The notes beneath the pieces were generated by a model. The model was not told the origin of the DNA and did not search any database. It worked only from the letters and a program-made list of their open reading frames with translations. A stretch of 64,000 nucleotides of DNA from a virus (lineage: Duplodnaviria > Caudoviricetes): positions 552 through 64,551 of IMG/VR virus record IMGVR_UViG_3300031996_000005; one strand, 5' to 3'. Positions 6,896 through 57,693 of the stretch are shown here, in pieces. Each line of letters begins with the position of its first letter. The first letter of the stretch is position 1. The position numbers were made by a program, and so were the translations under genes.

Positions 6896-6896
6896 C

Positions 6897-41610: not shown

Positions 41611-42594
41611 GTGACGCAGCCTCCCGCCATTCTCACCTACGGCACGCTCAAGTGGTGGGTTGCGGCGTTCCTCGCAGACACAACGGCGGACACGAACGAC
41701 ATCCCCGACCTGAAGCCGGTCAATGGGTCCGCGTTCATCGTCGCGGATATCGCCGAAGACGGCTTGTTCATTTCCCAGGACACCGACACGCCGCTGACCA
41801 TCCTCAAGACGCGCATGGAGCTGCTCATCGTCGATGGGCACCTGCAGGACCGGGCGGGCAACCGTCAGGTCAAGGTGCTGGCGTGTGACTCGCCCGGCCT
41901 GTCGCAGAAGAACTGGCCTTATGTCCTCTCGTTCGAGCTCGATGACGGGCTGACCTTCGGGTCCTTCCCGTTCTACGTCTATACCGATGAGATCGTTGAC
42001 CTCACACAGCGAGCCCCCTTCGAGCTCGTCAACGGTGAACTCATCACCAAGGGTGACCCGGGTGAGGCGGCCACGGTCACGGTCGGGGAAGTCATCACGG
42101 TCGAACCCGACCAGCCGGCTGATGTTGACAACAGCGGAACGGTCAGCGACGCGGTCTTCAACTTCTACATTCCCAAGGGGCGAGACGGTACCGACGGCCG
42201 GAATGGCGAGAGCTACGGCGGTGGGTTCATCGTCCCACCGGTGGATCCCGGCCAGCCGCTGGAACTGACCGTGCAGAGCCGTTGGGGCATCTCCACGGCC
42301 ACCGGGGAGACGTATTACAACGAAGACGGTGTGGTTGGCGTCGAGGCTGCCCTCGTTATGCCGGATCCCTTCACCGGTAACTTCATCCTGTTCAAGCCGG
42401 GCGAGCCCGTTCCCGATATCGGTGAGGCAAAGGGAGAGCAGGAGGGGGTCATTCGCTGGAATGGTTCCGCCTGGAAGTTCAACGGTGTGACGGTCACCGC
42501 CCGACCGACCGCAGGGTATGAGTCTTACCGCTTCAAGGGGGGCACTGTCGCACCAACCTTTGGGGCAACAGGAGATTCCTGGGAAAGCGACTAG
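41611..42594 (+). CDS. virion structural/fibre adaptor protein with short collagen-like segment
   Basis: KGDPGEAATVTVG...FNFYIPKGRDG; C-terminal WNGSAW and RPT..GDSW. Confidence 0.6.
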   Translation: MTQPPAILTYGTLKWWVAAFLADTTADTNDIPDLKPVNGSAFIVADIAEDGLFISQDTDTPLTILKTRMELLIVDGHLQDRAGNRQVKVLACDSPGLSQKNWPYVLSFELDDGLTFGSFPFYVYTDEIVDLTQRAPFELVNGELITKGDPGEAATVTVGEVITVEPDQPADVDNSGTVSDAVFNFYIPKGRDGTDGRNGESYGGGFIVPPVDPGQPLELTVQSRWGISTATGETYYNEDGVVGVEAALVMPDPFTGNFILFKPGEPVPDIGEAKGEQEGVIRWNGSAWKFNGVTVTARPTAGYESYRFKGGTVAPTFGATGDSWESD

Positions 42595-42651
42595 CTAGGC
42601 TTTATGCATTACCATCTCCTGTAATCCCCGACTGACTTAAGGACTACCCCC

Positions 42652-42996
42652 ATGGCTCTGAACGACCCCGCCCTCGTCATCGGCGCAACTGCCATCAAGA
42701 ACGCGATCACGCACCTGCAGCTGCATTCGACCAACGTCGGTGGCACCTGGGCGACTGGCGCTGTCGGCACCCGTGTGGCCTCGACCGGTGCCGTTGACTC
42801 CGATGGTGACATCACCTGGAGCACGGTTAACTTCACCGGCCTCACCGCCAACCAGGCCATTGGTGGCGTCTCCTACTGGTCGGCTTCCACCGCGGGTACC
42901 AACTACGGCGGCTCGGCGACCTCCGGTGACGCGACGGCGAACTCCGCCGGGGAGTACACCGTGACCCTGATCTCGGAGAACAGCACCGCCTCCTAA
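42652..42996 (+). CDS. small virion structural protein
   Basis: 114 aa Thr/Gly/Ala-rich, LQLHS..YWSAST.G. Confidence 0.55.
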   Translation: MALNDPALVIGATAIKNAITHLQLHSTNVGGTWATGAVGTRVASTGAVDSDGDITWSTVNFTGLTANQAIGGVSYWSASTAGTNYGGSATSGDATANSAGEYTVTLISENSTAS

Positions 42997-43042
42997 TCCG
43001 CCGTGAGATCACCGGTCCAATCAATGTAACGAAAGGTGATCG

Positions 43043-46000
43043 GTGGCGATCTCACTACGGGCTGTAGGCGCCACAACCGCCGCAGCAGGGGCGGTTACCG
43101 GTGTCACGGCGGGTGTGCCCGCCGGGCTGACATCCACCGATATCTCGATCCTCACGGTCGAGATCAAGGCCACCACCGCCGGCACCGCACCCACGATCAC
43201 CACCCCCTCGGGGTGGACGCTGATCGGGACCGTCACCAACAACGGCACCCTGGTGGCGGGTATCGACACTGGTTCCAACACGGTCGGCATGTACTACATC
43301 GTTGGCACCTACACGGCTCCGACGATCACCACCACAGGCGCGAACGCCATGGGCGCGGGCATTGTCGCCTTCCAGACGTCCACAGGGGGTACGTGGGACG
43401 TCTCCTCGACAACGACGGGGTCGGACACCTCCAGCGGAACCAACGCCTCTATCACCGGGGCGGCGAACATCAGCGCCGCCACCGGAGATTGGGTCATTGC
43501 CGGGGTCGGCATCTCCGGCGACATCGGGGCGGTGACGGCCGAAACCCTGACCGCGACCGGCGCCACCATCGGCACCCGCGCCAACCGCATCAACCTGGGT
43601 GTCACCACTAACAACGACTCTCGGCTACTCGTCACCGACTGGCCGGTCACCGCCGGCACGTCCAGCGCCGCTCCGGTCTACACATACTCGAACACTTCGG
43701 TTTCCACTTCCCATGCTCGGTTCGTGCGGCTCCGCGAGGTCCCTCCGGTCTACCCGAAGATCGACACGTTCACGGATGACTTCGCTACCGCCGACACCAC
43801 GAAGTGGGTGTCATTCCCCGCAAACACCACCGTCTCGAGCGGACAGCTCAGGATTGTCCCGGATACCGGCTACAGCAGCCTCTACTCGGTCAACACGTAC
43901 GACCTGACCGGCTCGTCGTTCAAGATCGAACTCGTGCAGCCTCCGGCCGTCGGGCTGGGCACTACTGCTGTTTTTTACTACCTGGCCGACGCGGCCGCCA
44001 ACGATGTCCGGTTCGTCTGGGAAGGCGACAACCTCTCCGCCCGCCGCAAGATCGGGGGCACCGAGACTACGATTCTGTCAGCGGCTTACTCGTCGACGAA
44101 TCATCGGTGGCTGCGAATCAGCGAGTCCGGCGGCGTTGTCACCTTCGCTACATCCCCCGACGGCTCGACCTGGACAACCTTCACGACGTGGACCGCGTCT
44201 GGCGTCACGCTATCCGGCGTCAACATCGGAATAGCCGGCGGCTACTACGGGGCAGAGACAGCCCCGGGAACAGCCCTTCTCGACAACCTGAATGGTGCGG
44301 CGGCGGCTCCGCCGGGAGCCGGCACCGCGACCGGTACTTGGACGTTCACGGGTACCGCCAGTGGTAAGCGGACCCCCAAAGCCACGAGCTCGGGTGTGTG
44401 GACCTTTGCAGGGTCTGCTCCTGGTAAGCGAACCCCAAAGGCCACAGCCGGAGGCACGTGGACCTTTGCGGGCAACGCCGTGGGGGGACAGGTCCGCAGG
44501 GGAACCGCAACCGGAACCTGGACTTTCACCGGTTCTACAACGGGTAAGCGGGTACCCAAGGCGACCGCCACGGGCACCCTCGCCTTCGCGGGTACCGCCG
44601 CAGGCGCCGCCCCTGCTGTCGTTGCCAAGACCTACTACGTCGCCGGTACCGGTGGCAGCGACAGCAACAACGGGCAGTCCTCCGGCGCAGCGTGGGCGAC
44701 CATCGCCAAGGTCAACGCGACCACATTCGTCCCCGGTGACACCATCCTCTTCCAGCGTGGCGCTACCTTCACCAGCGCCGTCCTACTCTGTGTCAACTCC
44801 GGCACATCAGTGAACCGCATCACTTACGGCGCTTACGGCACCGGTGCCAAGCCCGTCCTGAATGGCAGTGCCGGTACCCTCGTGCCCCTGACGGTCACCG
44901 GCAACTACGTGACCGTGCAGGACCTCGAAGTCCGAAATGCCGGGACCGCCGCCAACGCGCAGCGCGGCATTTCTTGGGTCGGCACTGACGGCCTTTGTCA
45001 GCGGGTCTACGCCACCGCCAACCCCATCGGAATTCAGGCGGAGAACGGCGCCCACCGGCTCCGGATCACCGATTGCGACCTCGTCGACAACACGATCGTT
45101 ATTGCTCCCGCTGGAGCGGACGACGACTATGGCGCCTCAGGCTGCGTGATTCTGCAGGCTGATAACTGCGAGGTCGACCACAGCCGGATTTCGGGGAACA
45201 TCGGTCCGTCCCCCGACTACGTATACGATGGCTCGGCAGTGGAGATTTACGGCTCCATCGGCACTGTCGTGCACCACAACATCTGTGTCGACAACGAGAC
45301 GTTTTCCGAACTCGGGCACACCCGCACGGCCAACACCGTATTTCACAACAACCTGATCACGTCGACGTTCGGCAACGCCAAGGGTGTCAACGCGCAGGGT
45401 ACGGGCACGTTCGGGCCGGTCCTGAACACTCATTTTCATCACAACACCGTGGTTTTGACTGGGACCACCTCCGTGGGCCTCGTCGCAGGATCCGGATCAA
45501 CGTTCTCCGCGCACAACAACATCATTCAGGCCGCTTACATTGGCTATACGGCGGACAAGATCGATGAGGGGCACAACCTCTACTTCGGCGGGGCTAACGG
45601 TAACGACATCCAGTCGACGGCCAACGCCGGCAGCGGCATCGCGGCCACCTCGGCTATTGCCAACCCACTGTTCATCGGGGGCGGCGACTACCACCTGCAA
45701 GGTGGCTCGCCGGCGATCAACCGGGGAACCACGCTGGCCAACGTCGGCACCGTTGATCTGGATGGTGCTGCACGTACCCAGGGTGCAGCCCCCGACGCGG
45801 GCGCCTTCGAGCGCGCTTCCATACCCGTTGGCACCGGAAGCGGCACTTGGACATTCACGGGTACTGCCACCGGATTCGGTGCGGCGGGATACACCCTGAA
45901 ATACGCGATGTCGTCCGCAGCCCCGACGCTACCCGGCGATGCCGCACTGACCGCTTCGGATATCAGCTTCGGCGCTGGCGCGGTATTCGAGGTCCCCTCC

Positions 46001-48562
46001 ACGGACCTGATCTATGACCCGAACAAGGTCCTGCAGATCAAGGCGGCGGTCGCGTCCACCACTATCGCCGAATCGGTTACCAACAACGTTTACGCCGAAA
46101 TTACGGTTAGCCGAACGGGTGGGTGGACACCGAAGACCCTCCGCATGAAATCCGCCCGCGGTGGTGCTGGGACCGCACGCGGATTCGCCATCCGCAGCAG
46201 CGTCGATGGCTATACCGCGGATCTGATGTATGACGACTCGATCGATACGGCTCGACCGACGCTCACCCAGTACACCGCGGATATCTCCTCTCTGGGCACG
46301 CAGACCGGGGCGGTCACGTTCCGGCTGTACCACTTTGCACCCACGACCCCTAACACCACACACCACGATGACTGGGAGATCGGCTACGTAGTTCCCCGCG
46401 GGGGCACCGCGACAGGTACGTGGAATTTCACCGGCAACGCCACTGGGAAGCGCACCCCTAAGGCTTCCGCTACGGGCGTGTGGACGTTCACGGGTGCAGC
46501 TGTCGGCAAGCGCGTCCCGAAGGGCACGGCCGCCGGCACCTGGAACTACATCGGCAGTGTGGTCGGGAAGCGCAGCCCAAAGGCGACGGCAGTCGGGTCC
46601 GCCACCTGGACAGGCACTGCTATCGGGACTGCTCCGGTCGTCGGGGCGAAAACCGGTGTCGCCACAGGGGCAACGGCCTGGGTCGGGACGGCTGTCGGTA
46701 AGCGTGCCCCTAAAGCCTCATCTACGGGCACATGGTCGTTCTCGGGAGCCTCAACTGGTAAGCGCGCCCCGAAGGCGACGATCTCCGGCGTGTGGACGTT
46801 CTCAGGCAGTGCGGCGGGAAAGCGCACGCCCAAGGCCGCAGCTACCGGCTCGTGGACGTTCACGGGCACCGCCACAGGAACTGCCTCCGCCACCCCCGGC
46901 GACATCCTCAACATCGGCACCGCCGACACTAACCACTTCGATCTGCAAATGGCCCGGTCCGGCGACGCAACATGGACCGAGATCACGCAGGCGCAGATTG
47001 CCTCCGGATACTCCGAAGCCCCCTACTTCGCGACGGTTCGGAGCGGTACCGCCGTCCAGTTCTCGGTCCCCCTCGACGCACCCCTGGTGGGCACCGCAAC
47101 CGGGCCGCGCTCGGAGTTGCGCGAGGTCAACGCCGACGGAACTGACGCCGCCTACAACATCAACACCGGCACCCACGAGTTCCACGGGCGCACTCGGATC
47201 ATGTCCTCCACCCCGGACATCGTGGCCGTGCAGATCCACAATGGGACCTCAGACCGCATCGCGATCCGAACCCAGCTGGTGTCGAGCACCCTGCGACTTC
47301 GGGTGCGCGTCAACGGATCATCGGTCACCCTGACTGGCGGTTCACTCGACGCGTTCAACCCCTACGTTGTCGGCACCGAATTTGAGTGGAAGATCCGCGT
47401 CGACAACGGCGCGATCAGCGTCTACATCGACAACATGACCACGCCGGTCTACACGGCACCGGCCGGCACCCTGGCGCCGACCGCGGGCATCTCCACGTGG
47501 TACTCCAAGGCCGGTGTTTACGCACAGGCGACTGGAGCCGGGACATCCAGCGCCGTCACCGAGCTCCGCGACCTGTCGGTCACTCACACGGCTGGGGCGG
47601 CGCCTGGACAGGGCGCCGCTACCGGTTCATGGGCCTTCACCGGGGCAGCTACCGGTAAGCGTGTCCCGAAAGCCACGGGCCCCGGCGTGTGGACCTTTAC
47701 CGGCAATGCAGTCGGAAAGCGCACTCCTAAAGCCTCGTCTACGGGCTCCTGGGCGTTTTCAGGCTCTGCTATCGGCACCAAGCCCTTGGTGGCGACGCTC
47801 TACACGCTCGCCTACGCGGGGAACACTGCTGCGCCGACCCTGCCCGCCGATGGGGCACTGACCGCGACCAGTATTACCGCCGGAGCGGGCGGCATCCTCA
47901 CGATCCCTCTCTCTACCACTGCTACCACCGCCTACGAACCCAACAAGGTCATCTCCCTGACCAACCGCACGTCGACCGTCGGAACCGAGGCGTCGGCCGT
48001 CAGCTCCGACATCTACTTCGAGTTCACGGTTGGCCGCACCGGCGGCTGGACCCCCAAGACTCTTCGCGCCAAGATCGCAGCTGGGGGTACGGCCGGTCCG
48101 CGCGGATTCATGGTCCGTTCCTCATACGACGGCTACACCACCAACCTGATAGCTCGAGGACCGGAGACCCCGACAACGGAACAGCTCCGGCCGAACCTGA
48201 ACCAGTTTTCGGCCGATCTGTCCGGAATGGGCACGCAGAGCGGCCCCATCACCTTCCGCGCCTACGTCTACGCGGCTGGCAACACCAACCGTGGTTACGA
48301 CTTCGATGACATCGAAATCGACTACACGGGCTTCTCTTCCAACACTGCCACCGGAACCTGGTCGTTCACCGGCAGTGCAGTAGGAAAGCGCAAGCCCAAG
48401 GCCTCCGCTACTGGTTCATGGACGTTCACCGGCGCCGCCATCGGGAGGTCTTCCCCGGCCGGTCGAGTGACCCGTAAATTCAATGGAACTGCGTGGGTGG
48501 TTGCAACAACCAAGAGATACAACGGATCCGCCTGGGTCAACACCGTCGTCACTGGCCTCTAA
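43043..48562 (+). CDS. 1839-aa modular protein: beta-sandwich, lectin-like, beta-helix, duplicated CBM-like domains, PL7 alginate-lyase-like domain, 20-aa repeats
   Basis: TYYVAG.GSDSNNG..GDTILF beta-helix start; DYHLQGGSPAINRG; RSELRE/QIH/YSKAGVY PL7 motifs. Confidence 0.75.
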   Translation: MAISLRAVGATTAAAGAVTGVTAGVPAGLTSTDISILTVEIKATTAGTAPTITTPSGWTLIGTVTNNGTLVAGIDTGSNTVGMYYIVGTYTAPTITTTGANAMGAGIVAFQTSTGGTWDVSSTTTGSDTSSGTNASITGAANISAATGDWVIAGVGISGDIGAVTAETLTATGATIGTRANRINLGVTTNNDSRLLVTDWPVTAGTSSAAPVYTYSNTSVSTSHARFVRLREVPPVYPKIDTFTDDFATADTTKWVSFPANTTVSSGQLRIVPDTGYSSLYSVNTYDLTGSSFKIELVQPPAVGLGTTAVFYYLADAAANDVRFVWEGDNLSARRKIGGTETTILSAAYSSTNHRWLRISESGGVVTFATSPDGSTWTTFTTWTASGVTLSGVNIGIAGGYYGAETAPGTALLDNLNGAAAAPPGAGTATGTWTFTGTASGKRTPKATSSGVWTFAGSAPGKRTPKATAGGTWTFAGNAVGGQVRRGTATGTWTFTGSTTGKRVPKATATGTLAFAGTAAGAAPAVVAKTYYVAGTGGSDSNNGQSSGAAWATIAKVNATTFVPGDTILFQRGATFTSAVLLCVNSGTSVNRITYGAYGTGAKPVLNGSAGTLVPLTVTGNYVTVQDLEVRNAGTAANAQRGISWVGTDGLCQRVYATANPIGIQAENGAHRLRITDCDLVDNTIVIAPAGADDDYGASGCVILQADNCEVDHSRISGNIGPSPDYVYDGSAVEIYGSIGTVVHHNICVDNETFSELGHTRTANTVFHNNLITSTFGNAKGVNAQGTGTFGPVLNTHFHHNTVVLTGTTSVGLVAGSGSTFSAHNNIIQAAYIGYTADKIDEGHNLYFGGANGNDIQSTANAGSGIAATSAIANPLFIGGGDYHLQGGSPAINRGTTLANVGTVDLDGAARTQGAAPDAGAFERASIPVGTGSGTWTFTGTATGFGAAGYTLKYAMSSAAPTLPGDAALTASDISFGAGAVFEVPSTDLIYDPNKVLQIKAAVASTTIAESVTNNVYAEITVSRTGGWTPKTLRMKSARGGAGTARGFAIRSSVDGYTADLMYDDSIDTARPTLTQYTADISSLGTQTGAVTFRLYHFAPTTPNTTHHDDWEIGYVVPRGGTATGTWNFTGNATGKRTPKASATGVWTFTGAAVGKRVPKGTAAGTWNYIGSVVGKRSPKATAVGSATWTGTAIGTAPVVGAKTGVATGATAWVGTAVGKRAPKASSTGTWSFSGASTGKRAPKATISGVWTFSGSAAGKRTPKAAATGSWTFTGTATGTASATPGDILNIGTADTNHFDLQMARSGDATWTEITQAQIASGYSEAPYFATVRSGTAVQFSVPLDAPLVGTATGPRSELREVNADGTDAAYNINTGTHEFHGRTRIMSSTPDIVAVQIHNGTSDRIAIRTQLVSSTLRLRVRVNGSSVTLTGGSLDAFNPYVVGTEFEWKIRVDNGAISVYIDNMTTPVYTAPAGTLAPTAGISTWYSKAGVYAQATGAGTSSAVTELRDLSVTHTAGAAPGQGAATGSWAFTGAATGKRVPKATGPGVWTFTGNAVGKRTPKASSTGSWAFSGSAIGTKPLVATLYTLAYAGNTAAPTLPADGALTATSITAGAGGILTIPLSTTATTAYEPNKVISLTNRTSTVGTEASAVSSDIYFEFTVGRTGGWTPKTLRAKIAAGGTAGPRGFMVRSSYDGYTTNLIARGPETPTTEQLRPNLNQFSADLSGMGTQSGPITFRAYVYAAGNTNRGYDFDDIEIDYTGFSSNTATGTWSFTGSAVGKRKPKASATGSWTFTGAAIGRSSPAGRVTRKFNGTAWVVATTKRYNGSAWVNTVVTGL
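44325..48440 (+). repeat. about 19 copies of a ~20-aa repeat (ATG(T/S/V)WTFTG.A.GKR.PKA) in five clusters
   Basis: visible in translation between globular domains. Confidence 0.85.
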
Positions 48563-48589: not shown

Positions 48590-49396
48590 ATGGCCTCCTA
48601 TGTCATCTACACGCAAGCTTCCATCGCGGAAGAGCTCGCGGCAAAGGCTGACCTGGTCCACACGCATCCTGAGTATGCGCTGGTCAACCACAACCACGCG
48701 ACGTTGTATGCGCCGCTCGTGCACACCCACACGGGCTTTGCGCCCACCTCGCACACGCACGCGATCTCTGATCTGACCGCAACGGGTCCGCGAGATGACA
48801 CCCATTTCCTTCGGGGCGATGGCACCTGGGCTATCCCGCCGGGCACGGGTGGAGGGGGTACCGGCGGTGTTACCGATCACGGTGCACTGACCGGGCTCGC
48901 CGATGATGACCATCCGCAGTACCACACGGATGCGCGTGGAGATGCCCGCTATTCGCGCACCACACACACGCACACCGCCGATGGGATCACCGATGCGACG
49001 GTGACCGGTAAAGCCCTTATGCGTGTGGTTGATGCCGCTGCGGCCCGCACGCTCATCGGAGCCAGCACCCTGGCCTTGGGTACGACGGCGACCACGGCGA
49101 TGGCCGGCAACAAGACCTTTACCAAGGCCGAGGTTGGTCTTGCCAATGTGGATAACACCGCGGATGCGAGCAAGCCGGTCTCCACGGCTCAGTCAGCGGC
49201 GATTGCGGCCGCGGTTGCCCCGGTTGCACCGAAGTCGGTTACGCAGGCAATGGTTTATCACGATGGCACACCTGGCGGCGGGACGAGGCCCACGGGCTAC
49301 TTCCGCGTTCTGTGGGTCAACCCGGTAGGAACCAACTATGCTCGTCCAACGAATATGGCAATTGGCGATGAGTGGGAAAAGGAGACAGCCGTCTAA
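48590..49396 (+). CDS. fibre-like protein with His-x-His repeats
   Basis: HTH/HNH repeats, DHGALTGLADDDHPQY, VGLANVDNTAD; C-terminal RPT..GDEW. Confidence 0.7.
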   Translation: MASYVIYTQASIAEELAAKADLVHTHPEYALVNHNHATLYAPLVHTHTGFAPTSHTHAISDLTATGPRDDTHFLRGDGTWAIPPGTGGGGTGGVTDHGALTGLADDDHPQYHTDARGDARYSRTTHTHTADGITDATVTGKALMRVVDAAAARTLIGASTLALGTTATTAMAGNKTFTKAEVGLANVDNTADASKPVSTAQSAAIAAAVAPVAPKSVTQAMVYHDGTPGGGTRPTGYFRVLWVNPVGTNYARPTNMAIGDEWEKETAV

Positions 49397-51954: not shown

Positions 51955-51988
51955 CGCGCACTCCTACTTAAGAGCGGGTAGTTGCTTT

Positions 51989-54900
51989 ATGGTTCTGGCC
52001 TCCGTCAGCCGGGTGGCGATGCACCGGGCATTGATCAACTCGGGCAATCTCAGCCTGACGACCCCATTCTCTTGGTCGGTCTATGGCGACACCTTCACGA
52101 TGAGCACGCCGCCGACTGTTCCGAGCGAGACCAGTACCTACTCGGCCGGAACATATGTGCTGCGGTACTCGGCCACCAACTCAGCTGGAACGGGGACGGA
52201 TGACGTCACGATCCTGGTGAGTGAGGCTCCCGCCGGGGTGTCGCCGCTAGTGCGCGTGCAGGCCCTCGGCGGGTGGAACGCCAGTGATGGGACGACGCAT
52301 ACGGCCGTCTCTACCCCCGTTCTTGCCAATGGGGCTGCGCCCGGAAACCTGCTGATTGCTGCCTGGTCTGTCGACCTGGATGCGGGAGTCTTCACGCCTC
52401 CAGCGGGATGGACCGTGCTGGCAAACCGCCCCGCACCATCGGTCTCGCTCCTGGTGTGTGGAAAGATCGCAGCTGGCGGTGAAAAGCAGGCTGGAGCTAG
52501 CTGGACCACACCCCAGGACCAGGCGAACGCGCTTATTGCTGAGTACGCCTTCGTGGAAGAGGGCAATCCCTACGGGCCGAACCAGTTCCCGAGCTACATT
52601 GACGTTCAGTACACCGATCTTTTGCTCGATCCGGCTCCGGCCATCGTCGACGGAATGGCCCTGGCATTCATTGCTGCGGCGAACACGCGAACGGCGCCGA
52701 GCAAGTTCGACCCGGTTGCTCCAGGTTGGACTAGGGTTTTCAACCTGACCGACGTAACGGATACCTCCGCGGGTCTGGCCCTTCTGGAAAAGCGGGTTGT
52801 TGCTGGCGAGAACCTGGTTACGACCTTCGGCTATACGGCTCTTACCCGCCGACAGGGATTCATCCTGCTGCTCAACCAGGAAGGTGCGGGAGCCACGATC
52901 CCTCCGGACCCCACGCCTACACCGGACCCCACGCCTACACCGGCCGGTGTCATCAATGAGACCGGCTCCCTAGCGAGTCTCGTCGCCGAGGCCTACACCA
53001 ACCGCGTCTCGGCTTCTGGCGATGAGGCGTACGACGTTCCCACCACCGCGCAGGCCGCAGCCCTCGCCGGGGCCTTCCAAAAGATTATGAGTGGTGACCT
53101 CGGCGGGGCCGCTTCCGCTGCCGACCCGCTCGGCTACGACGTCGTCCTCTTCTCGGACACCGCCGTTAACCGGCAGCACGCCGTGCTCCGCGAGCGCTTC
53201 CCCGCTTCGCGCTACTGGGGTCTGTACGTGTGGTCTCGCGATGCTGCGAAGACTGGACTGATCGTGGAGGCGCCCCACACCCGGGCGGACGGCAGCACCC
53301 ACACCGAGGGACAGTCGCTGTTCACCAAGAACAACGCGAAGGCGTTCCTCATGGCGACTGCGCATCGCAACTCGAACGCAGCCACCGACGTCGATGGTGA
53401 CCGCGTTTCGGATATGGCCAACGCGGATGGCGTGGTGAACCCCTTCCAAGAGGTTCACAAGGTTGTCGCTCTTGCCGGATCGACAGTCGTCCAGCTCCAT
53501 GGGTATGCCGATTCCTCGAACACCAGCTACGACATCATCATCTCAGAAGGCAAGTCTTCGTCCTCTCAGCGGACGCAGGACATCGCGACGTCCCTGCGTA
53601 ACGCCACCGGCCTCCGCGTCGCTGTCTACGACGGCACCGTCGGTGCGGGCCTTGGGGCCACCGGCAACGTTCAGGGCATCCAGTCTCGGGCAGCGGGGAA
53701 CTACTGGCTGCACGTCGAGCAGAACAACGCGACCCGGACCGACCCGGCTGCTCGGGACAAGATCGAGAACGTGCTGGCCACCCTGACCAGCGCAGCACCC
53801 ACGCCTCCACCCCCGCCGACTCCTACTCCCACGCCTACATCCCCCTGGCCTGCCCTGAAGTGGGCTGCGCCAAGTGGGTATACCGGATACACGGTCAAGA
53901 ACCTCAGTTCGACCACCGCGGTCAACGTTGCCGACGGCGGGGGCGGTGACGTGTGGATCAAGCTGCCCAAGGATAAGGCAGTGGCACCCCTCCGCATCCA
54001 GAACTGCCGGAATGCGGTGTTGATCGGTGGACAGATCAATGCGGAGCCCACGGAGGTTCTCGACGGCCAGGATCAGCGCCTGATTTACATCAAGGACTGC
54101 ACGGGCACAATCCACATCGAGGGTGTCCTGCTGAATGGAAAAGTCAGTGGGGCCACGTCGGATGCCGTTGCCATCAATGCTCCCAACGCCCTGGTTCAGA
54201 TCCAGCGCGTGCGGGCTGAGGCAATGCAGGGAAGCTCCAACAACCACGCCGACGTCATTCAGCCCTGGGGTGGAGTGCGTGAGTTCCGGATGGATTATGT
54301 CACGGGATCTTCGGACTATCAGGGTCTGCACGTGGGTGAGGCCGCCGGAAAGGTGATCGGAAAGGGCACCATCAGCAATACCAACATCTATGCCTCGGGC
54401 ACTCAGGCAGATGGCAAGGCGGGCCACTTGATCTGGCTCAATCCCGGCAAGTATCCAATGACGGTGGAGAACGTTTGGATTAAGCCGAGAACGGGTCGCA
54501 CCTTTGCCAACTCCATCTGGCCGCAGTCGAATGACCCGACCTACCCCGCCAAGATCGTAAATGGGGTTGCGACGTGGCCGTTAATCACGGGCAGTGTGCG
54601 CGAGGGACGGCCGGCTAAGGACTTTGCTCCAATGGATGCCGTCGGCCTGGACTACCTTGCCCCGACGGGTACCACTCCGCCGCCCGATCCCACGCCGACC
54701 GATCCCACGCCTCCGCCGCCGACGGGAACCTCCCCGACCCTGAATAGTCGGGTTGTCGGTTTCCCTGAGATCGGCCAGGGCCGGGTCAAGGTGAACACGA
54801 ACGCGGTTCGAGCTCGCCTGAAGGTTGGTACCGACCCCGGCGTTACGACGAACATTATCTATAGCCCGTACGCCACACCAAACGCTCAGGGTGACGTTCT

Positions 54901-56050
54901 GCTGACCATTCCTCTGCCGTCCAAATATGACGCCGGTGAGTACTTCTACCGAGTCGCCATGGTGAATTCCGGGGGTAGCGAATTCCTCGACACCAAGGTC
55001 ACCGTCGGGCGCCTCCTCACCGCGCCCACGGGCCGTGTGGGACTCACCATGAGCGGGGGTTCCTGCATCAAGGCGACAGACAGTGACAGCGCACTGGCGA
55101 TGGTCAACCGTCAGGACGACATCGGCTTCATGAATGGAGATCTCTGGTACGCCGACGGCAGCGGCACCGACCTCGCGAACTACCGCTCCAAGATGGATGA
55201 CAAACTGCGGGCAACCAACCTCGCAAAGTGGTTCGCCACCACCCCGATGATCTACACGCCATCGGACCATGACTACGCGATGAACAATGATGGCCTAGGG
55301 CCCGGCACGGCCGGTACGAACTGGAATGCGGTATTCCGCGAGAAGTGGCCACACCCGGCTCTGGCGGTGACCGGGACGCTGGGCTGCTACTGGACCCGGC
55401 CGTGGGGCACCGCTATTCGGATCATTGTTCTGGACACGCGCTCCTTTGCCGCGAAGGGGTCTACGAAGCTGGGGTCGACCCAGAAGGCCTGGCTCAAGAA
55501 CGTGATCAGCACGATGACTGAGGATCTCGGAATCGTCATCCAAGACGGCGTCTGGATCGGCCCGACGGATACCACCTCGGATGACTGGCCGAGCGCGATT
55601 GCCGAGCGGAACGAGATTGGTGACCACATCGCCGCGTCGGGTAAAAAGGTCGTGTGGTTCGGCGGGGACGCACACGCCCTAGCTGTGGATAATGGCACCA
55701 ACAGCCGAGGGGGTTTCCCGGTCTACCAGTGCGCCCCCCTGAACAACTCGGCCAGTCAGAAGGGCGGTCCGTACAGTGGTGGACAATATCCGTCCTCCGG
55801 TTCGGCTGTGGTCCAGCAGTACGGCCGACTCGTTGTCACCCTCGGGACAACCACGTTGACGTGCGCTTTTACGGGTTACTCCTCAGATAACACGGTGAGG
55901 AAAACTCTCACGACTACTTTTCCCGCGAAGCCCGCTCCCGTTGGTTCCGTCTCGGGCCCTGGGCGGTTCGTGTGGAACGGTACAAGCCTGGTCCGCCGCG
56001 AAGTTCAGCGATGGAATGGGACGACTCTATCCGGCACCGATCAACAGTAG
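51989..56050 (+). CDS. modular protein: GH46 C-terminal fragment, PKD-like C-half, beta-sandwich, Zn-hydrolase-like, beta-helix, PhoD-like phosphatase
   Basis: SRV..HR..I..GNL.L..P..W..YGD; AGTYVLRYSATN; GSC..GDLWYAD..DHDY..LDTRS..GGDAH; start codon uncertain. Confidence 0.75.
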   Translation: MVLASVSRVAMHRALINSGNLSLTTPFSWSVYGDTFTMSTPPTVPSETSTYSAGTYVLRYSATNSAGTGTDDVTILVSEAPAGVSPLVRVQALGGWNASDGTTHTAVSTPVLANGAAPGNLLIAAWSVDLDAGVFTPPAGWTVLANRPAPSVSLLVCGKIAAGGEKQAGASWTTPQDQANALIAEYAFVEEGNPYGPNQFPSYIDVQYTDLLLDPAPAIVDGMALAFIAAANTRTAPSKFDPVAPGWTRVFNLTDVTDTSAGLALLEKRVVAGENLVTTFGYTALTRRQGFILLLNQEGAGATIPPDPTPTPDPTPTPAGVINETGSLASLVAEAYTNRVSASGDEAYDVPTTAQAAALAGAFQKIMSGDLGGAASAADPLGYDVVLFSDTAVNRQHAVLRERFPASRYWGLYVWSRDAAKTGLIVEAPHTRADGSTHTEGQSLFTKNNAKAFLMATAHRNSNAATDVDGDRVSDMANADGVVNPFQEVHKVVALAGSTVVQLHGYADSSNTSYDIIISEGKSSSSQRTQDIATSLRNATGLRVAVYDGTVGAGLGATGNVQGIQSRAAGNYWLHVEQNNATRTDPAARDKIENVLATLTSAAPTPPPPPTPTPTPTSPWPALKWAAPSGYTGYTVKNLSSTTAVNVADGGGGDVWIKLPKDKAVAPLRIQNCRNAVLIGGQINAEPTEVLDGQDQRLIYIKDCTGTIHIEGVLLNGKVSGATSDAVAINAPNALVQIQRVRAEAMQGSSNNHADVIQPWGGVREFRMDYVTGSSDYQGLHVGEAAGKVIGKGTISNTNIYASGTQADGKAGHLIWLNPGKYPMTVENVWIKPRTGRTFANSIWPQSNDPTYPAKIVNGVATWPLITGSVREGRPAKDFAPMDAVGLDYLAPTGTTPPPDPTPTDPTPPPPTGTSPTLNSRVVGFPEIGQGRVKVNTNAVRARLKVGTDPGVTTNIIYSPYATPNAQGDVLLTIPLPSKYDAGEYFYRVAMVNSGGSEFLDTKVTVGRLLTAPTGRVGLTMSGGSCIKATDSDSALAMVNRQDDIGFMNGDLWYADGSGTDLANYRSKMDDKLRATNLAKWFATTPMIYTPSDHDYAMNNDGLGPGTAGTNWNAVFREKWPHPALAVTGTLGCYWTRPWGTAIRIIVLDTRSFAAKGSTKLGSTQKAWLKNVISTMTEDLGIVIQDGVWIGPTDTTSDDWPSAIAERNEIGDHIAASGKKVVWFGGDAHALAVDNGTNSRGGFPVYQCAPLNNSASQKGGPYSGGQYPSSGSAVVQQYGRLVVTLGTTTLTCAFTGYSSDNTVRKTLTTTFPAKPAPVGSVSGPGRFVWNGTSLVRREVQRWNGTTLSGTDQQ

Positions 56051-56061
56051 AAAGGCATCAC

Positions 56062-57693
56062 ATGCGTACAACCTCGCGCATCGCGGGAATGGGGGTGGTG
56101 GTTGCCCTACTGGCTATGGGGGTTCTGTTCGCCCCTTCGGCCTCCGCGGCCGCTCCAGCCGCCCCGTCGCTCAACTACGACGTCAACCCCGACCGCTCCG
56201 TGGATCTCGTCTGGACCAAGGTGCCTGGCGCCGTCCAGTACCGGGTCTTCGAGGACGTCAACACTCCCACCAACGGTACCGGCGCTGGCGTGGCCACGGT
56301 GACCGACAACAAGTCCCGTCGTGGCCCGCTAGGGCCCGGGAACTTCGGCTACTTCATCAAGGCCATCAACTCGGCTGGCGAACTATCGGTGGCCTCCAAC
56401 CGGGCCGAATTCACCGTGTCCTCGGATCCGGCCTCGCCGGACGTCAGCTCCATTACCTTCGACAAGCCCGCCACGGGTGCGACGGTCAGTGGGACGACCG
56501 TTCAGTTTGACGCAACCTGCGCCGAGCCGTGCTCCCGCATGGAGTACCGGGTCGACGGCCAGGTCGTTGGCTCGGACACCACCACCGCGGACGGCCTCGG
56601 CGAGGCGTGGGACTCCACCACGGTTCCGAACGGCGACTACTACATCCAGGCCGGCGGCACCAGCGCTGCAAGTGGTCAGGTGGAGGTCACGACGCCCCGC
56701 AAGATCACGGTGAACAACACCGCGGCGACCCCCACTCCTACTCCCACTCCTACTCCTACGCCAACGCCGTCGCCGACTCCTACTCCTACTCCTACCCCTA
56801 CTCCTACCCCGACGCCGAGCCCCACTCCGACACCGACGCCTAGCGGCTCGAAGCTGAGTTGGGCGCCGCCGACCGGGTACGCCAACTTCCCCGCCAAGAA
56901 CGTCACTTCGGCTGGCTTCACTAGCGTCAGCGGCGGTGGCGGGGACGTGCGGATCGTGCTCCCTAAGGACAAGTCGGTTGGTCCCATCCAGATCAGCTCC
57001 TGCCGCAACGTCGTCCTCATCGGTGGCAAGATCAAGGTGCTGGCGTCCGAGACGGCCAACGGTGCCGACCAGCGGGCCGTCTACATCAAGGGCTGCACCG
57101 GCACCGTGCACATCGAGGGACTGGAGATCGATGGCAATGTCTCCGGGTCCACCGCTGACGCCTTCGCAGTCAGCGCTCCTTCCGCCACCGTGCAGGTCGA
57201 GAACGTGCGCGCCATTGGCATGAAGGGCTCGTCGAACAACCACGCTGACTGCTTCCAGCCGTGGGGCGGTGCCAAGGCCTACCGGATCGACCGATTCACC
57301 TGCTCGACGAACTACCAGGGGCTGCACGTCGGTGAGGACCTGGGCCAGATCGGTTCCGGCGATATCCGCAACACGAACATCTTCTCCTCGGGTACCCAGT
57401 CGGATGGCAAGGGCGGGCAGTACATCTGGCTGCCGTCCTCCAACGATTACCCGGTGAAGCTGAGCAACGTGTACATCTCCGGCCGCACCGGTGACTCGTT
57501 CAGCCGTTCCATCTGGCCGAGCACCGACAATTCGAGCTGCAAGGCGTCGATCTCCGGTTCCCCGGCGGTCGCCACGTGGCCCGGTTGCTCGTGGATCACC
57601 GGCAAGGTCACCCAGGGCAAGCCCTCCTCCGGTGACTTCGTCCCCGCGGGTTCGGTCGGCCTCACCTATGCCTCCCCGGGCTACGGTGCGTGA
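56062..57693 (+). CDS. secreted protein: signal peptide, FN3, Ig-like, Pro-Thr linker, beta-helix
   Basis: MRTTSRIAGMGVVVALLAMGVLFAPSASA-A; GAAAGG RBS; beta-helix paralogous to the 53850-54660 region. Confidence 0.8.
   Translation: MRTTSRIAGMGVVVALLAMGVLFAPSASAAAPAAPSLNYDVNPDRSVDLVWTKVPGAVQYRVFEDVNTPTNGTGAGVATVTDNKSRRGPLGPGNFGYFIKAINSAGELSVASNRAEFTVSSDPASPDVSSITFDKPATGATVSGTTVQFDATCAEPCSRMEYRVDGQVVGSDTTTADGLGEAWDSTTVPNGDYYIQAGGTSAASGQVEVTTPRKITVNNTAATPTPTPTPTPTPTPSPTPTPTPTPTPTPTPSPTPTPTPSGSKLSWAPPTGYANFPAKNVTSAGFTSVSGGGGDVRIVLPKDKSVGPIQISSCRNVVLIGGKIKVLASETANGADQRAVYIKGCTGTVHIEGLEIDGNVSGSTADAFAVSAPSATVQVENVRAIGMKGSSNNHADCFQPWGGAKAYRIDRFTCSTNYQGLHVGEDLGQIGSGDIRNTNIFSSGTQSDGKGGQYIWLPSSNDYPVKLSNVYISGRTGDSFSRSIWPSTDNSSCKASISGSPAVATWPGCSWITGKVTQGKPSSGDFVPAGSVGLTYASPGYGA
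56726..56840 (+). repeat. Pro-Thr linker, degenerate hexanucleotide tandem repeat
   Basis: (ACTCCT)n-like, encodes TPTPTPTPTPTPSPTPTP... Confidence 0.85.

Follow-up and report, generated by a model that had tools for sequence, protein, structure and literature searches.

The window analysed here is the whole stretch of 64,000 nucleotides from the 64,551-bp record of an uncultured soil actinophage, a genome which is rated complete and whose record ends are terminal repeats. Seven closely spaced genes on the + strand, bounded by an Amidase_2 lysin and the large terminase, occupy 24.9% of the record. The sequence-only reading had placed a 16-kb island in this interval and put it at a quarter of the genome, and both statements agree with our results. 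It counted six genes; there are seven, because the 114-aa g1b (42652-42996) was overlooked. The genes and their flanks are:

40523..41416, + strand, flanking endolysin of the Amidase_2 type (Pfam PF01510, 1.4e-11; phrog_880 endolysin, 1.2e-26)
41611..42594, + strand, g1, 327 aa, fibre-like (phrog_4120 minor tail protein, 1.5e-4)
42652..42996, + strand, g1b, 114 aa, small, Thr/Ala/Gly-rich, an open reading frame with an ATG
43043..48562, + strand, g2, 1839 aa (Pfam, PDB, PHROG and Atlas matches, and repeat analysis)
48590..49396, + strand, g3, 268 aa, fibre protein with HxH and GDGTW repeats (PHROG matches)
49372/49396-51954, + strand, g4, 852 aa from ATG 49396, the likelier start (860 aa from GTG 49372)
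51989..56050, + strand, g5, 1353 aa (Pfam, PHROG, profile and homologue matches)
56062..57693, + strand, g6, 543 aa from ATG 56062, likelier than GTG 55972, with a GAAAGG Shine-Dalgarno site
57756..59141, + strand, flanking large terminase (phrog_2, 2.6e-32)

The island begins 194 nt past the lysin. From g1 to the terminase no intergenic gap exceeds 62 nt, and no terminator signal above background was detected in this interval. No reading frame is broken, Shine-Dalgarno sites are present, and stops are coupled to starts; the ATG of g4, for example, overlaps the g3 stop as TAATG and has a GGAG Shine-Dalgarno site. GC content is uniform (0.61-0.65) over the island and its flanks. Downstream of the terminase are the portal (phrog_64), a MuF-like gene, the scaffold and the major capsid gene (phrog_3990, 3.5e-117). 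The tail genes TMP, Dit and Tal are found at 3.3-10 kb, about 31 kb from the island on that side; the tail module stops at Tal, beyond which there are small genes only and no other fibre genes. The island was confirmed as real, its coordinates and gene content holding with corrections.

At least seven polymer-cutting domains are distributed across the seven fibre-like island proteins, and the domains and their motifs bear out the earlier description of a cluster of fibre-like proteins loaded with such enzymes. g1 and g3 are of fibre type and carry no enzyme domain. In g1, a short Gly-X-Y run resembles collagen and the C-terminus bears a WNGSAW motif; its residues 56-152 are 35% identical to part of a 610-aa protein encoded upstream of the terminase of the related phage L094. 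Residues 104-232 of g3 match 14 PHROGs with tail fibre, minor tail, head fibre and virion structural annotations, at least 10 of which are shared with the product of L159 6261-7850, a protein ending in Pfam Phage_tail_C. For g1b no PHROG or Pfam family was matched; homologues occupy the same slot in the relatives L006 (4455-4847, 30% identity) and L160 (6647-6994, 47%, full length). Within the window, a C-terminal (W/F/Y)NG(S/T)x(W/L) motif is confined to the ends of g1, g2 and g5, and it also occurs in the minor tail protein gp34 of Microbacterium phage RikSengupta.

A P(S/A)GWT beta-sandwich (hereafter the PSGWT module) had been proposed to be common to three of the proteins, and both profiles and an AF2 model support this for g2, g4 and g5. 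The module is about 230 aa long and forms a two-lobed beta-sandwich (pLDDT 91.7). Profile E-values range from 1e-39 to 1e-70, with a pairwise identity of only 13-16%, which would be odd if all three modules dock at one site. It has no PDB relative and no solved structure (best VIA Z 5.2). It matches 54 predicted viral structures in BFVD at E<=1e-3, with TM up to 0.77; many of these bear the annotation minor tail protein (Mycobacterium phages PP, Gaia, Tweety, Hawkeye, Tonenili, MooMoo and Tourach; Gordonia phage GodonK), and another is a glycerophosphodiesterase (806 aa) from a Microbacterium phage. Such labels in actinophages are mostly assigned by gene position. The family comprises 2,244 cluster representatives. 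Among its 150 best members the module is N-terminal in 112, in 81 with variable cargo that includes GH46, PL7, LamG, discoidin, Sipho_Gp37 and a fibre-tail adaptor, so that it behaves like a common handle. In viral contigs the PSGWT genes fall in structural or late regions, and gp116 of Streptomyces phage Teutsch, an independent match, likewise has the module followed by a PhoD-like domain. It is most likely that the module is an attachment or oligomerisation part, although tandem copies within single proteins would be no less compatible with binding or with a shaft than with an anchor.

The features of g2 are:

43043..43759, + strand, PSGWT module, residues 1-239, two-lobed and all-beta (AF2 pLDDT 91.7; profile match 2.6e-70)
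44324..44623, + strand, 20-aa repeat array 1, consensus TATGTWTFTG-A-GKR-PKA
44621..45832, + strand, right-handed beta-helix, residues 527-930 (Atlas 0.97 to PF13229 / Pel9A-like clusters)
45890..46387, + strand, domain X copy 1, residues 950-1115 (match to P0271 residues 2-169)
46406-46912, 47615-47803 and 48344-48472, with a single unit at 45830-45869, + strand, further 20-aa repeat arrays
46925..47587, + strand, PL7 lyase domain, residues 1295-1515 (Pfam PF08787, 4.5e-24; PDB 2ZA9, 5e-11)
47795-48328, + strand, domain X copy 2, residues 1585-1762 (match to P0271 residues 2-169)

A domain without assignment separates the PSGWT module from the beta-helix. Repeat arrays lie at all domain junctions, and two (F/Y)NG(S/T)AW motifs are found C-terminally. 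The 16 core units keep a strict period of 20 residues (60 nt) with 60-85% DNA identity from unit to unit, and residues 1169-1274, which are repeats, match the minor tail protein phrog_19249 (2e-12). The beta-helix matches PF13229 at E 2.4e-4 in a one-genome search, which is under the Pfam cut-off, and its first 80 aa match the GH136 beta-helix enzymes 7V6M and 6KQS. The PL7 motifs RSELR, QIH and YSKAGVYAQ are intact. A Pfam search with domain X gave no match. Its two copies show 50% and 45% identity to residues 2-169 of P0271, a metagenomic protein in which a domain of the g5 318-602 type comes next, and it is possibly a binding module.

In g4, the PSGWT module is followed by the N-half of a PKD-like domain, the N-part of a GH46 chitosanase, a Pro-Thr linker, a Big_7 Ig domain and a PL7 lyase. 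g5 continues with a GH46 C-piece, the PKD-like C-half, a PSGWT module of its own, a domain with His/Glu/Asp motifs, a beta-helix and a PhoD-like phosphoesterase, its domains being spaced by Pro-Thr linkers and two WNGT motifs lying C-terminally. The features around the split GH46 are:

50293..50919, + strand, g4 GH46 chitosanase, N-terminal ~195 residues of the fold (Pfam 1.5e-56; 1CHK 8e-52)
50920..52003, + strand, cassette inside the GH46 fold (Pro-Thr linker, Big_7, PL7, stop 51954, 34-nt spacer, g5 ATG 51989)
50950-51159, + strand, g4 Big_7 Ig (Pfam; 39%-identical copy in g6)
51265-51912, + strand, g4 PL7 lyase (Pfam 1e-32; motifs RTELR, QIH and YLKAGNYLQ intact)
52004..52102, + strand, GH46 C-terminal piece, g5 residues 6-38 (phmmer; phrog_20173)

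The GH46 domain is about 60% identical to Streptomyces N174 CsnA. Its match in g4 covers positions 1-179 of 210 in the Pfam profile and 4-195 of 238 in the 1CHK chain, and keeps the catalytic Glu and Asp (equivalents of E22 and D40 of 1CHK). The chitosanase of the sequence-only reading therefore stands as a domain with both catalytic residues, but it is not whole in g4, since the last ~35 residues are g5 6-38. By phmmer this piece corresponds to 4QWP 214-247 of 248 and 1CHK 209-236 of 238 (E 0.014-0.08), and it matches phrog_20173 at positions 528-595 (E 2.9e-10). Namo gp21 aligns with both genes (217-527 with g4 196-516; 530-595 with g5 8-77), and in P0122 a single chain contains both GH46 pieces, separated by about 10 residues. 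Judging from these alignments, insertion of the Ig-PL7 cassette is what splits the GH46 fold between g4 and g5; the split enzyme may be dead. With the PL7 domains of g2 and g4, the two PL7 lyase-like domains described earlier are both accounted for.

The remaining features of g5 and those of g6 are:

52250..52915, + strand, g5 PSGWT module, residues 88-309 (profile match 2.2e-39; 67% identity to P0122 548-796)
52940..53794, + strand, g5 residues 318-602, called 'Zn-hydrolase-like' in the sequence-only reading (invariant E-x-P-H, Q-L-H-G-Y and H-V-E motifs)
53855..54664, + strand, g5 beta-helix, residues 623-892 (paralogue of the g6 C-terminal domain, 53% identity, 7.9e-89)
54719..55930, + strand, g5 PhoD-like metallophosphoesterase region, residues 911-1314 (PF09423, 2.9e-9; phrog_13624 hydrolase, 2.8e-47)
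56062-56148, + strand, g6 Sec-type signal peptide (n-region MRTTSR, 19-residue hydrophobic core with KD 2.30, ASA motif)
56698-56844, + strand, g6 49-aa Pro-Thr linker
56851-57690, + strand, g6 beta-helix (AF2 pLDDT 92.2; VIA Z 17.6 to PL1 lyases)

Domain 318-602 has homologues in P0271 (72%) and P0272 (34%). Its nearest named family in the Atlas is PF05908, at 0.84 only, and profile searches with PF05908, PF05013 and PDB gave no match, so that the Zn-hydrolase label was not upheld. The PhoD-like assignment was (36.9 bits against a Pfam cut-off of 27), and the metal-ligand motifs GGSC, GDLWYAD, SDHD and GDAH are present; a homologue, Samistivirus gp116, itself has an N-terminal PSGWT module. 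All three beta-helices proposed earlier were recovered, that of g2 by the Atlas and the weak PF13229 match and those of g5 and g6 by the AF2 model of g6, through which the g5 fold is shown. Of the Ig/PKD/CBM-like modules suggested, the Big_7 Ig of g4 and its copy in g6 held, while a Pfam search of the island proteins returned no match for the LamG/CBM, FN3 and PKD labels.

In g6 the signal peptide is followed by a beta domain without assignment, a Big_7-like Ig, the linker and the beta-helix. g1-g5 have no hydrophobic leader. Homologues 54-67% identical to g6 are short secreted or anchored actinobacterial proteins, and Geodermatophilaceae supply the closest cellular relatives of the g5/g6 beta-helix, which are secreted and in two Blastococcus genomes adjoin surface-polysaccharide genes. 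By its sequence, g6 is a secreted paralogue of the g5 beta-helix domain. It had been counted as part of an appendage; with a Sec-type signal peptide, its presence on the virion is not expected.

We surveyed the slot upstream of the terminase in 80 related phages, with 36 informative loci among relatives whose terminases are 54-84% identical. Lysins, tail fibres, beta-helix or phosphodiesterase genes often fill it, and in at least 14 of the 36 loci genes for 450-1570 aa on the + strand lie directly upstream of the terminase. Their products include a Phage_tail_C fibre ('Phage tail tip domain', in L159), a 'tail protein', LamG, beta-helix, GDPD (in L147), g1-, g1b- and g2-like proteins and endolysins, in inserts much smaller than the present one. 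Since lysins, fibres and enzymes occupy the slot in so many relatives, the position is a lineage trait and no sign of a special appendage; distance from the tail genes, taken earlier to imply head or collar fibres, loses that meaning.

Taken together, we consider it probable that the island encodes displaced tail-fibre depolymerases directed against host envelope polymers, a side-fibre or receptor-binding gene set placed beside the lysin rather than after the tail-tip gene. We favour a tail appendage because many PSGWT fold matches are annotated as minor tail proteins, a relative has Phage_tail_C in the same slot, and no fibres follow Tal. We infer that g1-g5 would be made late in the cytoplasm and assembled on the tip or baseplate of the tail. 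g1 and g3 may serve as fibre or adaptor proteins, and g2, g4 and g5 as long modular fibres in which the PSGWT module, the first domain in g2 and g4, is joined to several catalytic domains kept apart by 20-aa repeats (g2) or Pro-Thr linkers (g4, g5). On host contact these enzymes would cut layered surface polymers. Going by family names, the PL7 and beta-helix lyase- or hydrolase-type domains might act on an acidic, uronate-containing polysaccharide, GH46 on a beta-1,4-glucosamine-rich glycan, and the PhoD-like domain on phosphodiester-linked polymers of the teichoic-acid type. In Bacillus subtilis, wall teichoic acid is a substrate of PhoD. Once the surface layers are cut, Tal and the tape-measure protein could gain access to the wall. 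g6, the g5 beta-helix copy with a Sec signal, would be exported by the infected cell before lysis and strip the target polymer of g5 from the cell and its surroundings. The island most likely follows a known strategy for crossing host surface polymers, in a version that is unusually large and odd in its construction. New here are the PSGWT family, the slot as a lineage trait, the GH46 split between g4 and g5, and g6 as a putative secreted paralogue.

It is less likely, but deserves consideration, that the proteins are soluble exit enzymes, an extension of the lysis module absent from virions, which are freed at lysis (with g6 secreted) and degrade polymers of capsule, EPS and wall so that progeny get out and diffuse through the matrix. 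The start of the island directly after the lysin would equally suit an exit function, and relatives have endolysins in the equivalent slot. The signal peptide of g6 and its secreted bacterial relatives fit as well, as do the Pro-Thr linkers, which are typical of secreted actinobacterial enzymes. The PSGWT-PhoD-like homologue of Samistivirus sits among tRNA genes, outside the tail module, an observation that speaks against tail fibres. Against exit enzymes, g1-g5 lack signal peptides, and g1 and g3 are enzyme-free and of fibre type; both the PSGWT module and the 20-aa repeats have their matches in minor-tail families, the slot of L159 holds a Phage_tail_C fibre, and without the island Tal would be the only fibre gene of the phage.

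Head- or collar-attached fibres, on the capsid or neck and enriching phages on polymer surfaces, are improbable. The island does adjoin the head genes, 31 kb from Tal, and g3 matches phrog_5711 'head fiber protein' (1.1e-10) as well as two structural PHROGs of the 'head and packaging' category. This match, however, sits on a generic fibre repeat to which tail-fibre and minor-tail PHROGs match equally well, and no head-decoration or collar family was detected. The tail-protein fold matches, the Phage_tail_C slot gene, the lack of fibres after Tal and a position shared with lysins as a lineage trait all tell against the head or collar attachment proposed earlier.

We give very little credence to enzymes acting on polymers foreign to the host, such as fungal chitosan and algal alginate, or on general biofilm matrix, as auxiliary metabolic or niche-clearing genes apart from host entry. 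This draws on the family names only (GH46 'chitosanase', PL7 'alginate lyase'), whereas the domains share their chains with phage fibre modules and the Rimavirus GH46 gene lies within a tail module; nor is any selective advantage known that the digestion of foreign polymers would bring to a lytic phage. The polymers of the host envelope make a simpler target, because the closest beta-helix relatives are secreted proteins of Geodermatophilaceae, likely host relatives, and in two genomes adjoin surface-polysaccharide genes, and the fungal or algal targets suggested earlier were not borne out. It is equally hard to credit that metagenome assembly merged strain variants or bacterial DNA into an oversized island with a split GH46: the contig is such an assembly, repetitive DNA (Pro-Thr or 60-nt repeats) makes up its junctions, g6 looks bacterial and inserts in relatives are much smaller, but terminal repeats close the record, GC is uniform, frames and their signals are intact, the repeat units are not the near-identical copies that mislead assemblers, the second GH46 junction is non-repetitive, and g2, g4 and g5 are collinear over long segments with the independent metagenomic proteins P0122, P0186, P0124, P0125 and P0271.

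The tail-fibre reading can be compared with several known systems. The idea of many polymer-degrading enzymes on one common handle recalls the cellulosome, but in the strict sense the likeness proposed earlier fails: no cohesin, dockerin or scaffoldin was detected in the island proteins and, unlike a dockerin, the shared module is a 230-aa beta-sandwich that has diverged widely among the three proteins and has no known partner. Actinophage 'minor tail proteins' (Tweety gp21, PP, Gaia, Hawkeye, Tourach; GodonK; the GDPD of Microbacterium phage ValentiniPuff) match the PSGWT fold at Foldseek probability 1.0 and TM 0.5-0.77. They are mostly short and enzyme-free, with a likewise putative role and location in the virion. 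Mycobacterium phage Tweety gp21, encoded at the distal end of the tail block ahead of lysin A, is too dissimilar in sequence for detection by the PSGWT HMM.

Rimavirus (Streptomyces cluster BD) gp21 'chitosanase' (598 aa) has, as here, a PKD-like domain with a nested GH46, and is 48% identical to g4 196-516 and 43% to g5 8-77. Its gene lies between the major tail and tape-measure genes; it is a single chain with a whole GH46 and no PSGWT module, whereas here an Ig-PL7 cassette and a stop and restart cut the fold. Samistivirus (Streptomyces cluster BE) gp116 'hydrolase / purple acid phosphatase' (651 aa, phrog_13624) shares the order of PSGWT module then PhoD-like domain, but at ~29% identity, with a single enzyme and in a 133-kb genome. 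Phages of Gram-positive hosts carry tail-associated teichoic-acid phosphodiesterases (GDPD) and other tail lysins (PMC10194240, PMC6116005). The present phage would similarly place a phosphodiesterase on its adsorption apparatus to cut wall glycopolymers, although of the PhoD type.

Another close parallel in design is offered by the branched multi-depolymerase receptor-binding systems of the Klebsiella phages KP32/K11 (dual RBPs), phiK64-1/RaK2 and phiKp24 (PMC6872550, PMC10253068, PMC9700779). Common to both are several enzyme-bearing fibres per virion (here read from the genes), a conserved N-terminal structural part with variable C-terminal enzymes, and a large share of the genome devoted to degrading host-surface polymers. 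The Klebsiella phages, podo- or myoviruses, infect a Gram-negative bacterium; each of their proteins carries a single beta-helix depolymerase, and the peptides for anchoring, branching and docking are known. The present phage, in contrast, is an actinobacterial siphovirus with two or three unrelated catalytic domains per chain (lyase, glycosidase, phosphoesterase) and a different N-terminal module, and its set is encoded beside the terminase together with a secreted paralogue.

The record, of which the window covers bases 552-64551, is 64,551 bp long, closed by terminal repeats and rated complete, with a GC content of ~62% throughout. Its major capsid protein shares ~49% identity with its counterparts in Microbacterium (Krampusvirus), Arthrobacter, Gordonia and Mycobacterium phages, and because of this resemblance we regard it as an uncultured siphovirus-type actinophage. 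The late genes run from the large terminase at 57756 through portal, MuF-like, scaffold and capsid genes, and continue past the wrap of the record to the tail-tip proteins Dit and Tal. The island lies at 41611-57693, between the lysin and the terminase, as the sequence-only reading had placed it, and its share of the genome, given there as a quarter, was measured at 24.9%. That reading counted six genes; the plus-strand genes are seven (g1, g1b, g2, g3, g4, g5 and g6). The positions of the late genes past the wrap, and those of the added gene and the likeliest starts in the island, are as follows.

1929: major tail protein, followed by the chaperone
3283: tape measure
6023: Dit
6864-10001: Tal
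42652-42996, plus strand: g1b, 114 aa, the gene missed by the sequence-only reading
49396, plus strand: likeliest start (ATG) of g4, with a TAATG overlap with the g3 stop and a GGAG site
56062, plus strand: likeliest start (ATG) of g6, preceded by a GAAAGG site

The island genes are contiguous and co-oriented with the terminase and head genes, and the gaps from g1 to the terminase range from -1 to 62 nt. Since a scan found promoter- and terminator-like sites in the island to be no commoner than in shuffled sequence, the island looks co-transcribed with the head genes. Upstream of the large terminase we recognised no small-terminase gene. An inverted repeat, CACCAC ... GTGGTG with arms 26 nt apart, lies in the 62-nt gap (57694-57755) that precedes the terminase. 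The sole sizeable gap near the island is the 194 nt between lysin and g1 (41417-41610); its sequence is coding-like, it holds no listed ORF of at least 80 aa, and it may hide a short gene or an extension of the lysin. Downstream of Tal we found small genes only (≤190 aa), two of which have membrane segments; fibre genes are absent there. At 10412-11309, after Tal, lie two small genes that have strongly hydrophobic stretches and may encode holin-type proteins remaining at the old lysis position, the lysin now being at 40.5 kb.

In a 60.5-kb relative whose terminase is 59% identical, the slot directly upstream of the terminase contains a g1b-like gene and genes for a 442-aa protein, which ends in the PSGWT module (a two-lobed beta-sandwich with a P(S/A)GWT motif), and a 689-aa protein built of 20-aa repeats. 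A metagenome scan yielded 80 further loci with terminases 54-84% identical, and in at least 14 of the 36 with enough upstream sequence the slot is filled by plus-strand genes of 450-1570 aa. Ten of the slot genes found in relatives were annotated. Two are endolysins, and others encode a GDPD phosphodiesterase, a 'tail protein', a LamG protein and a beta-helix protein of 1569 aa. Another of the ten encodes a fibre that shares PHROGs with g3. No relative locus approaches 16 kb in this position. The slot before the terminase, then, is the home in this lineage of the lysin and of variable fibre and enzyme genes, and the window carries a greatly expanded version of it.

The best-supported reading, which we consider probable, is that the island encodes tail side fibres displaced from the tail module long ago in the lineage. 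The genes stand in the late structural block, their products give minor-tail PHROG matches and minor-tail fold matches, and the fibre encoded in the relative's slot ends in Pfam Phage_tail_C. The main rival, that the products are soluble enzymes for exit and belong with the lysis module, would fit the adjoining lysin and the endolysins in related slots; set beside the minor-tail matches, it appears doubtful to us. Head fibres had been considered plausible since the island lies away from the tail genes. That distance is real, but the slot position is a lineage trait seen in the relatives' loci, so it is not evidence for head fibres, which we hold to be very unlikely.

The claim that three proteins share the P(S/A)GWT beta-sandwich was borne out. 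The module, of ~230 residues, occupies g2 1-239, g4 21-236 and g5 88-309, and identity between the copies is only 13-16%. When 1.84 billion representatives were searched with a profile, 2,244 proteins came out at E ≤ 1e-3; this family has no Pfam or PHROG model. Among the 150 best members it often occurs as a tandem duplicate, and in 112 it stands at the extreme N-terminus (81 with downstream cargo, 31 stand-alone). Its annotated partners are GH46, PL7, LamG, discoidin, Ig and FN3, together with Sipho_Gp37, a podophage fibre-tail adaptor and minor tail and tail PHROGs. The AF2 model is an all-beta two-lobed sandwich (pLDDT 91.7); among solved structures, Foldseek returned no relative at E ≤ 1e-3 and the best VIA match reached Z 5.2 over half the domain. 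Predicted viral structures gave 54 matches, many of them named minor tail protein (Mycobacterium and Gordonia phages) and one being an 806-aa glycerophosphodiesterase of a Microbacterium phage.

In viral contigs, genes of this family occupy the interval from capsid to tape measure or from portal to capsid, follow a tail protein and lysin, or precede an integrase. The PSGWT HMM independently detects the N-terminus of Streptomyces phage Teutsch gp116, a PhoD-like 'hydrolase', and because of this arrangement we take the pairing of a PSGWT module with a downstream PhoD-like domain as a recurring design. The N-terminus of a Rimavirus chitosanase was considered as a PSGWT module and rejected. Neither megablast of the island nor tblastn of g2 and of P0121, a consensus-like module protein, gave a match in 50,697 phage records, and close relatives of g2 and g5 were not found in IMG/VR and JGI metagenomes. 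A 61-kb viral contig (L011) encodes a 968-aa PSGWT protein between its capsid and tape-measure genes, and at 1159-4410 a 1083-aa protein with head-morphogenesis (MuF-like), RNA-ligase-like and portal/protease PHROG matches. The family is large and phage-specific, and learning whether it serves as an anchor or in binding would improve the annotation of thousands of 'minor tail proteins'.

The catalytic domains proposed from sequence were largely recovered. Both PL7 domains match PF08787 above the curated cut-off, with all three signature blocks intact in g2 and g4:

g2 residues 1295-1515: PL7, PF08787 85.9 bits (cut-off 29.7), profile positions 2-225 of 225
g4 residues 632-847: PL7, PF08787 114.2 bits (cut-off 29.7), profile positions 3-218 of 225

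Their PDB relatives are 2ZA9, 5ZQI and 1UAI. The conserved catalytic blocks of PL7, R(S/T)ELR, Q(I/V)H and YxKAGxYxQ, appear as RSELR 1356, QIH 1397 and YSKAGVYAQ 1487 in g2 and as RTELR 693, QIH 742 and YLKAGNYLQ 823 in g4. The PhoD-like phosphatase at the end of g5 is supported by PF09423 above cut-off (36.9 bits, cut-off 27; profile positions 61-269 of 343 only), by the metal-ligand motifs GGSC, GDLWYAD, SDHD and GDAH, and by phrog_13624 (2.8e-47). The three beta-helices were confirmed as right-handed ones: the C-terminal domain of g6, g5 623-892, which is 53% identical to it, and g2 527-930. The AF2 model of the g6 helix (pLDDT 92.2) was aligned by VIA to 7XKS over 225 residues (Z 17.6, rmsd 3.4). 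Scores against PL1 pectate lyases were Z 16-17.6, and those against phage tailspikes, VexL and alginate lyases were Z 15-16; Foldseek alone gave weak rows only (E ≥ 0.03). For the g5/g6 helix, considered against specific CAZy families (PL1, PL3, PL6, PL9, GH28 and others), no Pfam family matched and many families tie at VIA Z 14-17; its invariant residues are D32, R52, N53, H87, E89, D103, H131, D133, R145 and D147. What supports the g2 helix is Atlas similarity of 0.97 to Beta_helix and Pel9A-like clusters, a PF13229 match that stayed below threshold when this genome was searched on its own, and partial similarity to GH136 beta-helix enzymes.

The accessory domains fared less well. Of the Ig/PKD/CBM-like modules, the Ig part stood: g4 has a Big_7 domain, and g6 carries a copy of it that is 39% identical. 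The PKD, LamG/CBM and FN3 labels lacked Pfam support. PF13385, PF00041, PF18911, PF05908 and PF05013 had no match when run against the phage genome alone, and because of these genome-only searches the Zn-hydrolase, LamG, FN3 and PKD labels were dropped as unconfirmed, not disproved. Pfam searches of g2, g5, g6 and g1b sub-segments gave nothing at E ≤ 0.1, and searches of g1, g5 and g6 sequences against the PDB gave nothing useful apart from linkers. In g5 318-602, the segment labelled Zn-hydrolase-like, PF05908 and PF05013 had no match even at E ≤ 10 in the one-genome search. This segment belongs to no Pfam family, a profile of its three homologues found nothing in the PDB, and the single hint is an Atlas neighbour, PF05908 at 0.84; its E-x-P-H, Q-L-H-G-Y and H-V-E motifs are invariant in the three known homologues. 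The cellulosome-like view was not supported, Pfam scans having found no dockerin or cohesin family in any island protein.

The GH46 chitosanase held as to family and catalytic residues, but not as a complete fold on one polypeptide. PF01374 matches g4 at 191.8 bits (cut-off 27), and the domain is ~60% identical to the Streptomyces N174 chitosanase 1CHK; in this alignment 'AENS' and 'IGDGRGYT' are kept, and the equivalents of E22 and D40 are g4 E326 and D344. g4 spans only residues 4-195 of the 238-residue 1CHK. The missing end is found in g5, where residues 6-38 match the final 34 residues of GH46 enzymes of solved structure.

50293-52102, plus strand: whole region of the split GH46, the fold nested in a PKD-like domain and cut after ~195 residues

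The Rimavirus 'chitosanase' gp21, encoded inside the tail module of that phage, has an intact GH46 fold and is collinear with both proteins (217-527 corresponds to g4 196-516, and 530-595 to g5 8-77). P0122, a metagenomic protein of 1789 aa in which the fold is likewise intact, carries both GH46 pieces ~10 residues apart on one chain, and it joins g4 11-294 directly to g5 53-302. Compared with gp21 and P0122, the island GH46 is interrupted by a Pro-Thr linker, Big_7, PL7, a stop codon, a spacer and a start codon. The two chains may re-form the fold, the GH46 may be a recent relic, or the junction may be an assembly error. We give an assembly artefact a very low probability; the DNA at the second junction is free of repeats, a point against a simple misjoin.

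Read from ATG 56062 (to 57693), g6 begins with a positively charged n-region (MRTTSR), a 19-residue hydrophobic core and an ASA motif of the AxA type, the layout of a Sec-type signal peptide as judged by inspection and a hydropathy scan, and the KD value of the core (2.30) is the highest of the 16 proteins tested. After this leader come a beta domain and a Big_7-like domain, and then a Pro-Thr linker of 49 residues leads to the beta-helix. The nearest homologues of g6, 54-67% identical and 309-431 aa long, carry Pro/Thr/Ala-rich linkers and either a signal peptide or an anchor. In a collection with one genome per species, the best matches (53-60%) belong without exception to Geodermatophilus, Modestobacter and Blastococcus, the next being from Saccharimonadales (43-47%), which are epibionts of actinobacteria, and Solirubrobacterales (~41%). 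In two Blastococcus genomes the homologue has a TupA-like ATP-grasp gene on one side and a gene for an initiating sugar transferase on the other, with an ABC exporter nearby; in Geodermatophilus its neighbours are unrelated. On account of the leader, the secreted homologues and the Geodermatophilaceae relatives, g6 is best read as a putative exported enzyme of bacterial ancestry, a copy of whose catalytic domain would have been built into the fibre protein g5.

At the DNA level, Geodermatophilaceae genomes also match early genes of the phage and, at 70-79% over 110-250 nt, its tape-measure and Tal genes; the major capsid protein was not found in three genomes of the family. The DNA search covered that family alone, and we tentatively propose it as the host; the unpublished genomes G050, G085 and G101 support none of the claims made here. 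Among the early-gene matches, a 385-nt stretch at ~35600-35984 shares 71-77% DNA identity with at least 23 genomes of the family. This stretch is a probable host-derived early gene and could help in assigning the host.

The domains of these proteins are separated by repetitive DNA. g2 contains, at 44324-48472, 16 strict units of 20 residues (60 nt) with the consensus TATGTWTFTG-A-GKR-PKA, distributed in five arrays that occupy every domain junction; the units share 60-85% DNA identity, and part of one array matches a minor-tail PHROG. The repeat-built 689-aa protein of the relative has a sub-threshold Pfam 'beta flower' match. In g4, g5 and g6 the junctions are Pro-Thr linkers of similar CCN-ACN DNA, 60-83% identical:

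50918-50965, plus strand: Pro-Thr linker
52892-52939, plus strand: Pro-Thr linker
53790-53849, plus strand: Pro-Thr linker
54671-54724, plus strand: Pro-Thr linker
56711-56848, plus strand: Pro-Thr linker, like the other four at a domain junction of g4, g5 or g6

These linkers are likely recombination sites for module exchange, and repetitive junction DNA of both kinds offers an obvious route for shuffling among g2, g4, g5, g6 and metagenomic relatives. The fibre protein g3 contains HxH and GDGTW repeats. The motif (W/F/Y)NG(S/T)x(W/L) ends g1, g2 and g5, is found nowhere else in the window, and recurs in the minor tail protein gp34 of the nearest cultured relative. Tweety gp25, a hypothetical protein at the end of the tail block of that Mycobacterium phage (L093, 24317-25297), opens with three tandem copies of this motif, in the form WNG(S/T)(A/S)F.

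If the island encodes displaced side fibres, the N-terminal PSGWT modules would mount or oligomerise them and the enzyme domains would cut layered polymers of the host surface. Judged by family membership, the PL7 domains and beta-helices may act on a uronate-containing polysaccharide, GH46 on a glucosamine-rich glycan and the PhoD-like domain on phosphodiester-linked polymers, with g6 as a putative exported helper. Biofilm or fungal and algal polymers had been put forward as targets; set beside the Geodermatophilaceae relatives of g6, substrates foreign to the host seem to us highly improbable. A further proposal has three parts: that PSGWT is a general handle mounting interchangeable enzymes on actinophage baseplates, that g4 and g5 stay joined by fold completion between them (the GH46 end and the last PKD-like strands, carried by g5, finishing domains begun on g4), and that the phage exports a free enzyme copy via Sec before lysis. 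That all three hold jointly is unlikely in our estimation.

Phage depolymerases are well studied for capsulated Gram-negative pathogens. To our knowledge, very little is known of them in Actinomycetota, a group with poorly mapped surface polymers (teichoic and teichuronic acids, EPS). The island offers a compact set of two PL7 domains, a GH46, a PhoD-type enzyme and three beta-helices, one of an uncharacterised family with secreted Geodermatophilaceae relatives, which could be expressed to probe the wall polymers of actinobacteria that live on rock and in deserts. The secreted paralogue and the split GH46 give concrete, testable examples of fibre-gene evolution by shuffling at repetitive linkers, and they bear on whether an infected cell pre-conditions its surroundings. 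The PSGWT family and the split GH46 most deserve follow-up.

Glycan-binding modules are present all round an actinophage baseplate in the cryo-EM structure of mycobacteriophage Douge (PMC13033339). In function the island comes closest to the branched multi-depolymerase systems of Klebsiella phages (PMC6872550, PMC10253068, PMC9700779) and to the tail-borne teichoic-acid phosphodiesterases of phages of Gram-positive hosts (PMC10194240, PMC6116005). In contrast to both, the island places several unrelated catalytic domains on a chain, uses a handle module without a solved structure, adjoins the terminase, splits one fold across two genes and includes a secreted paralogue.
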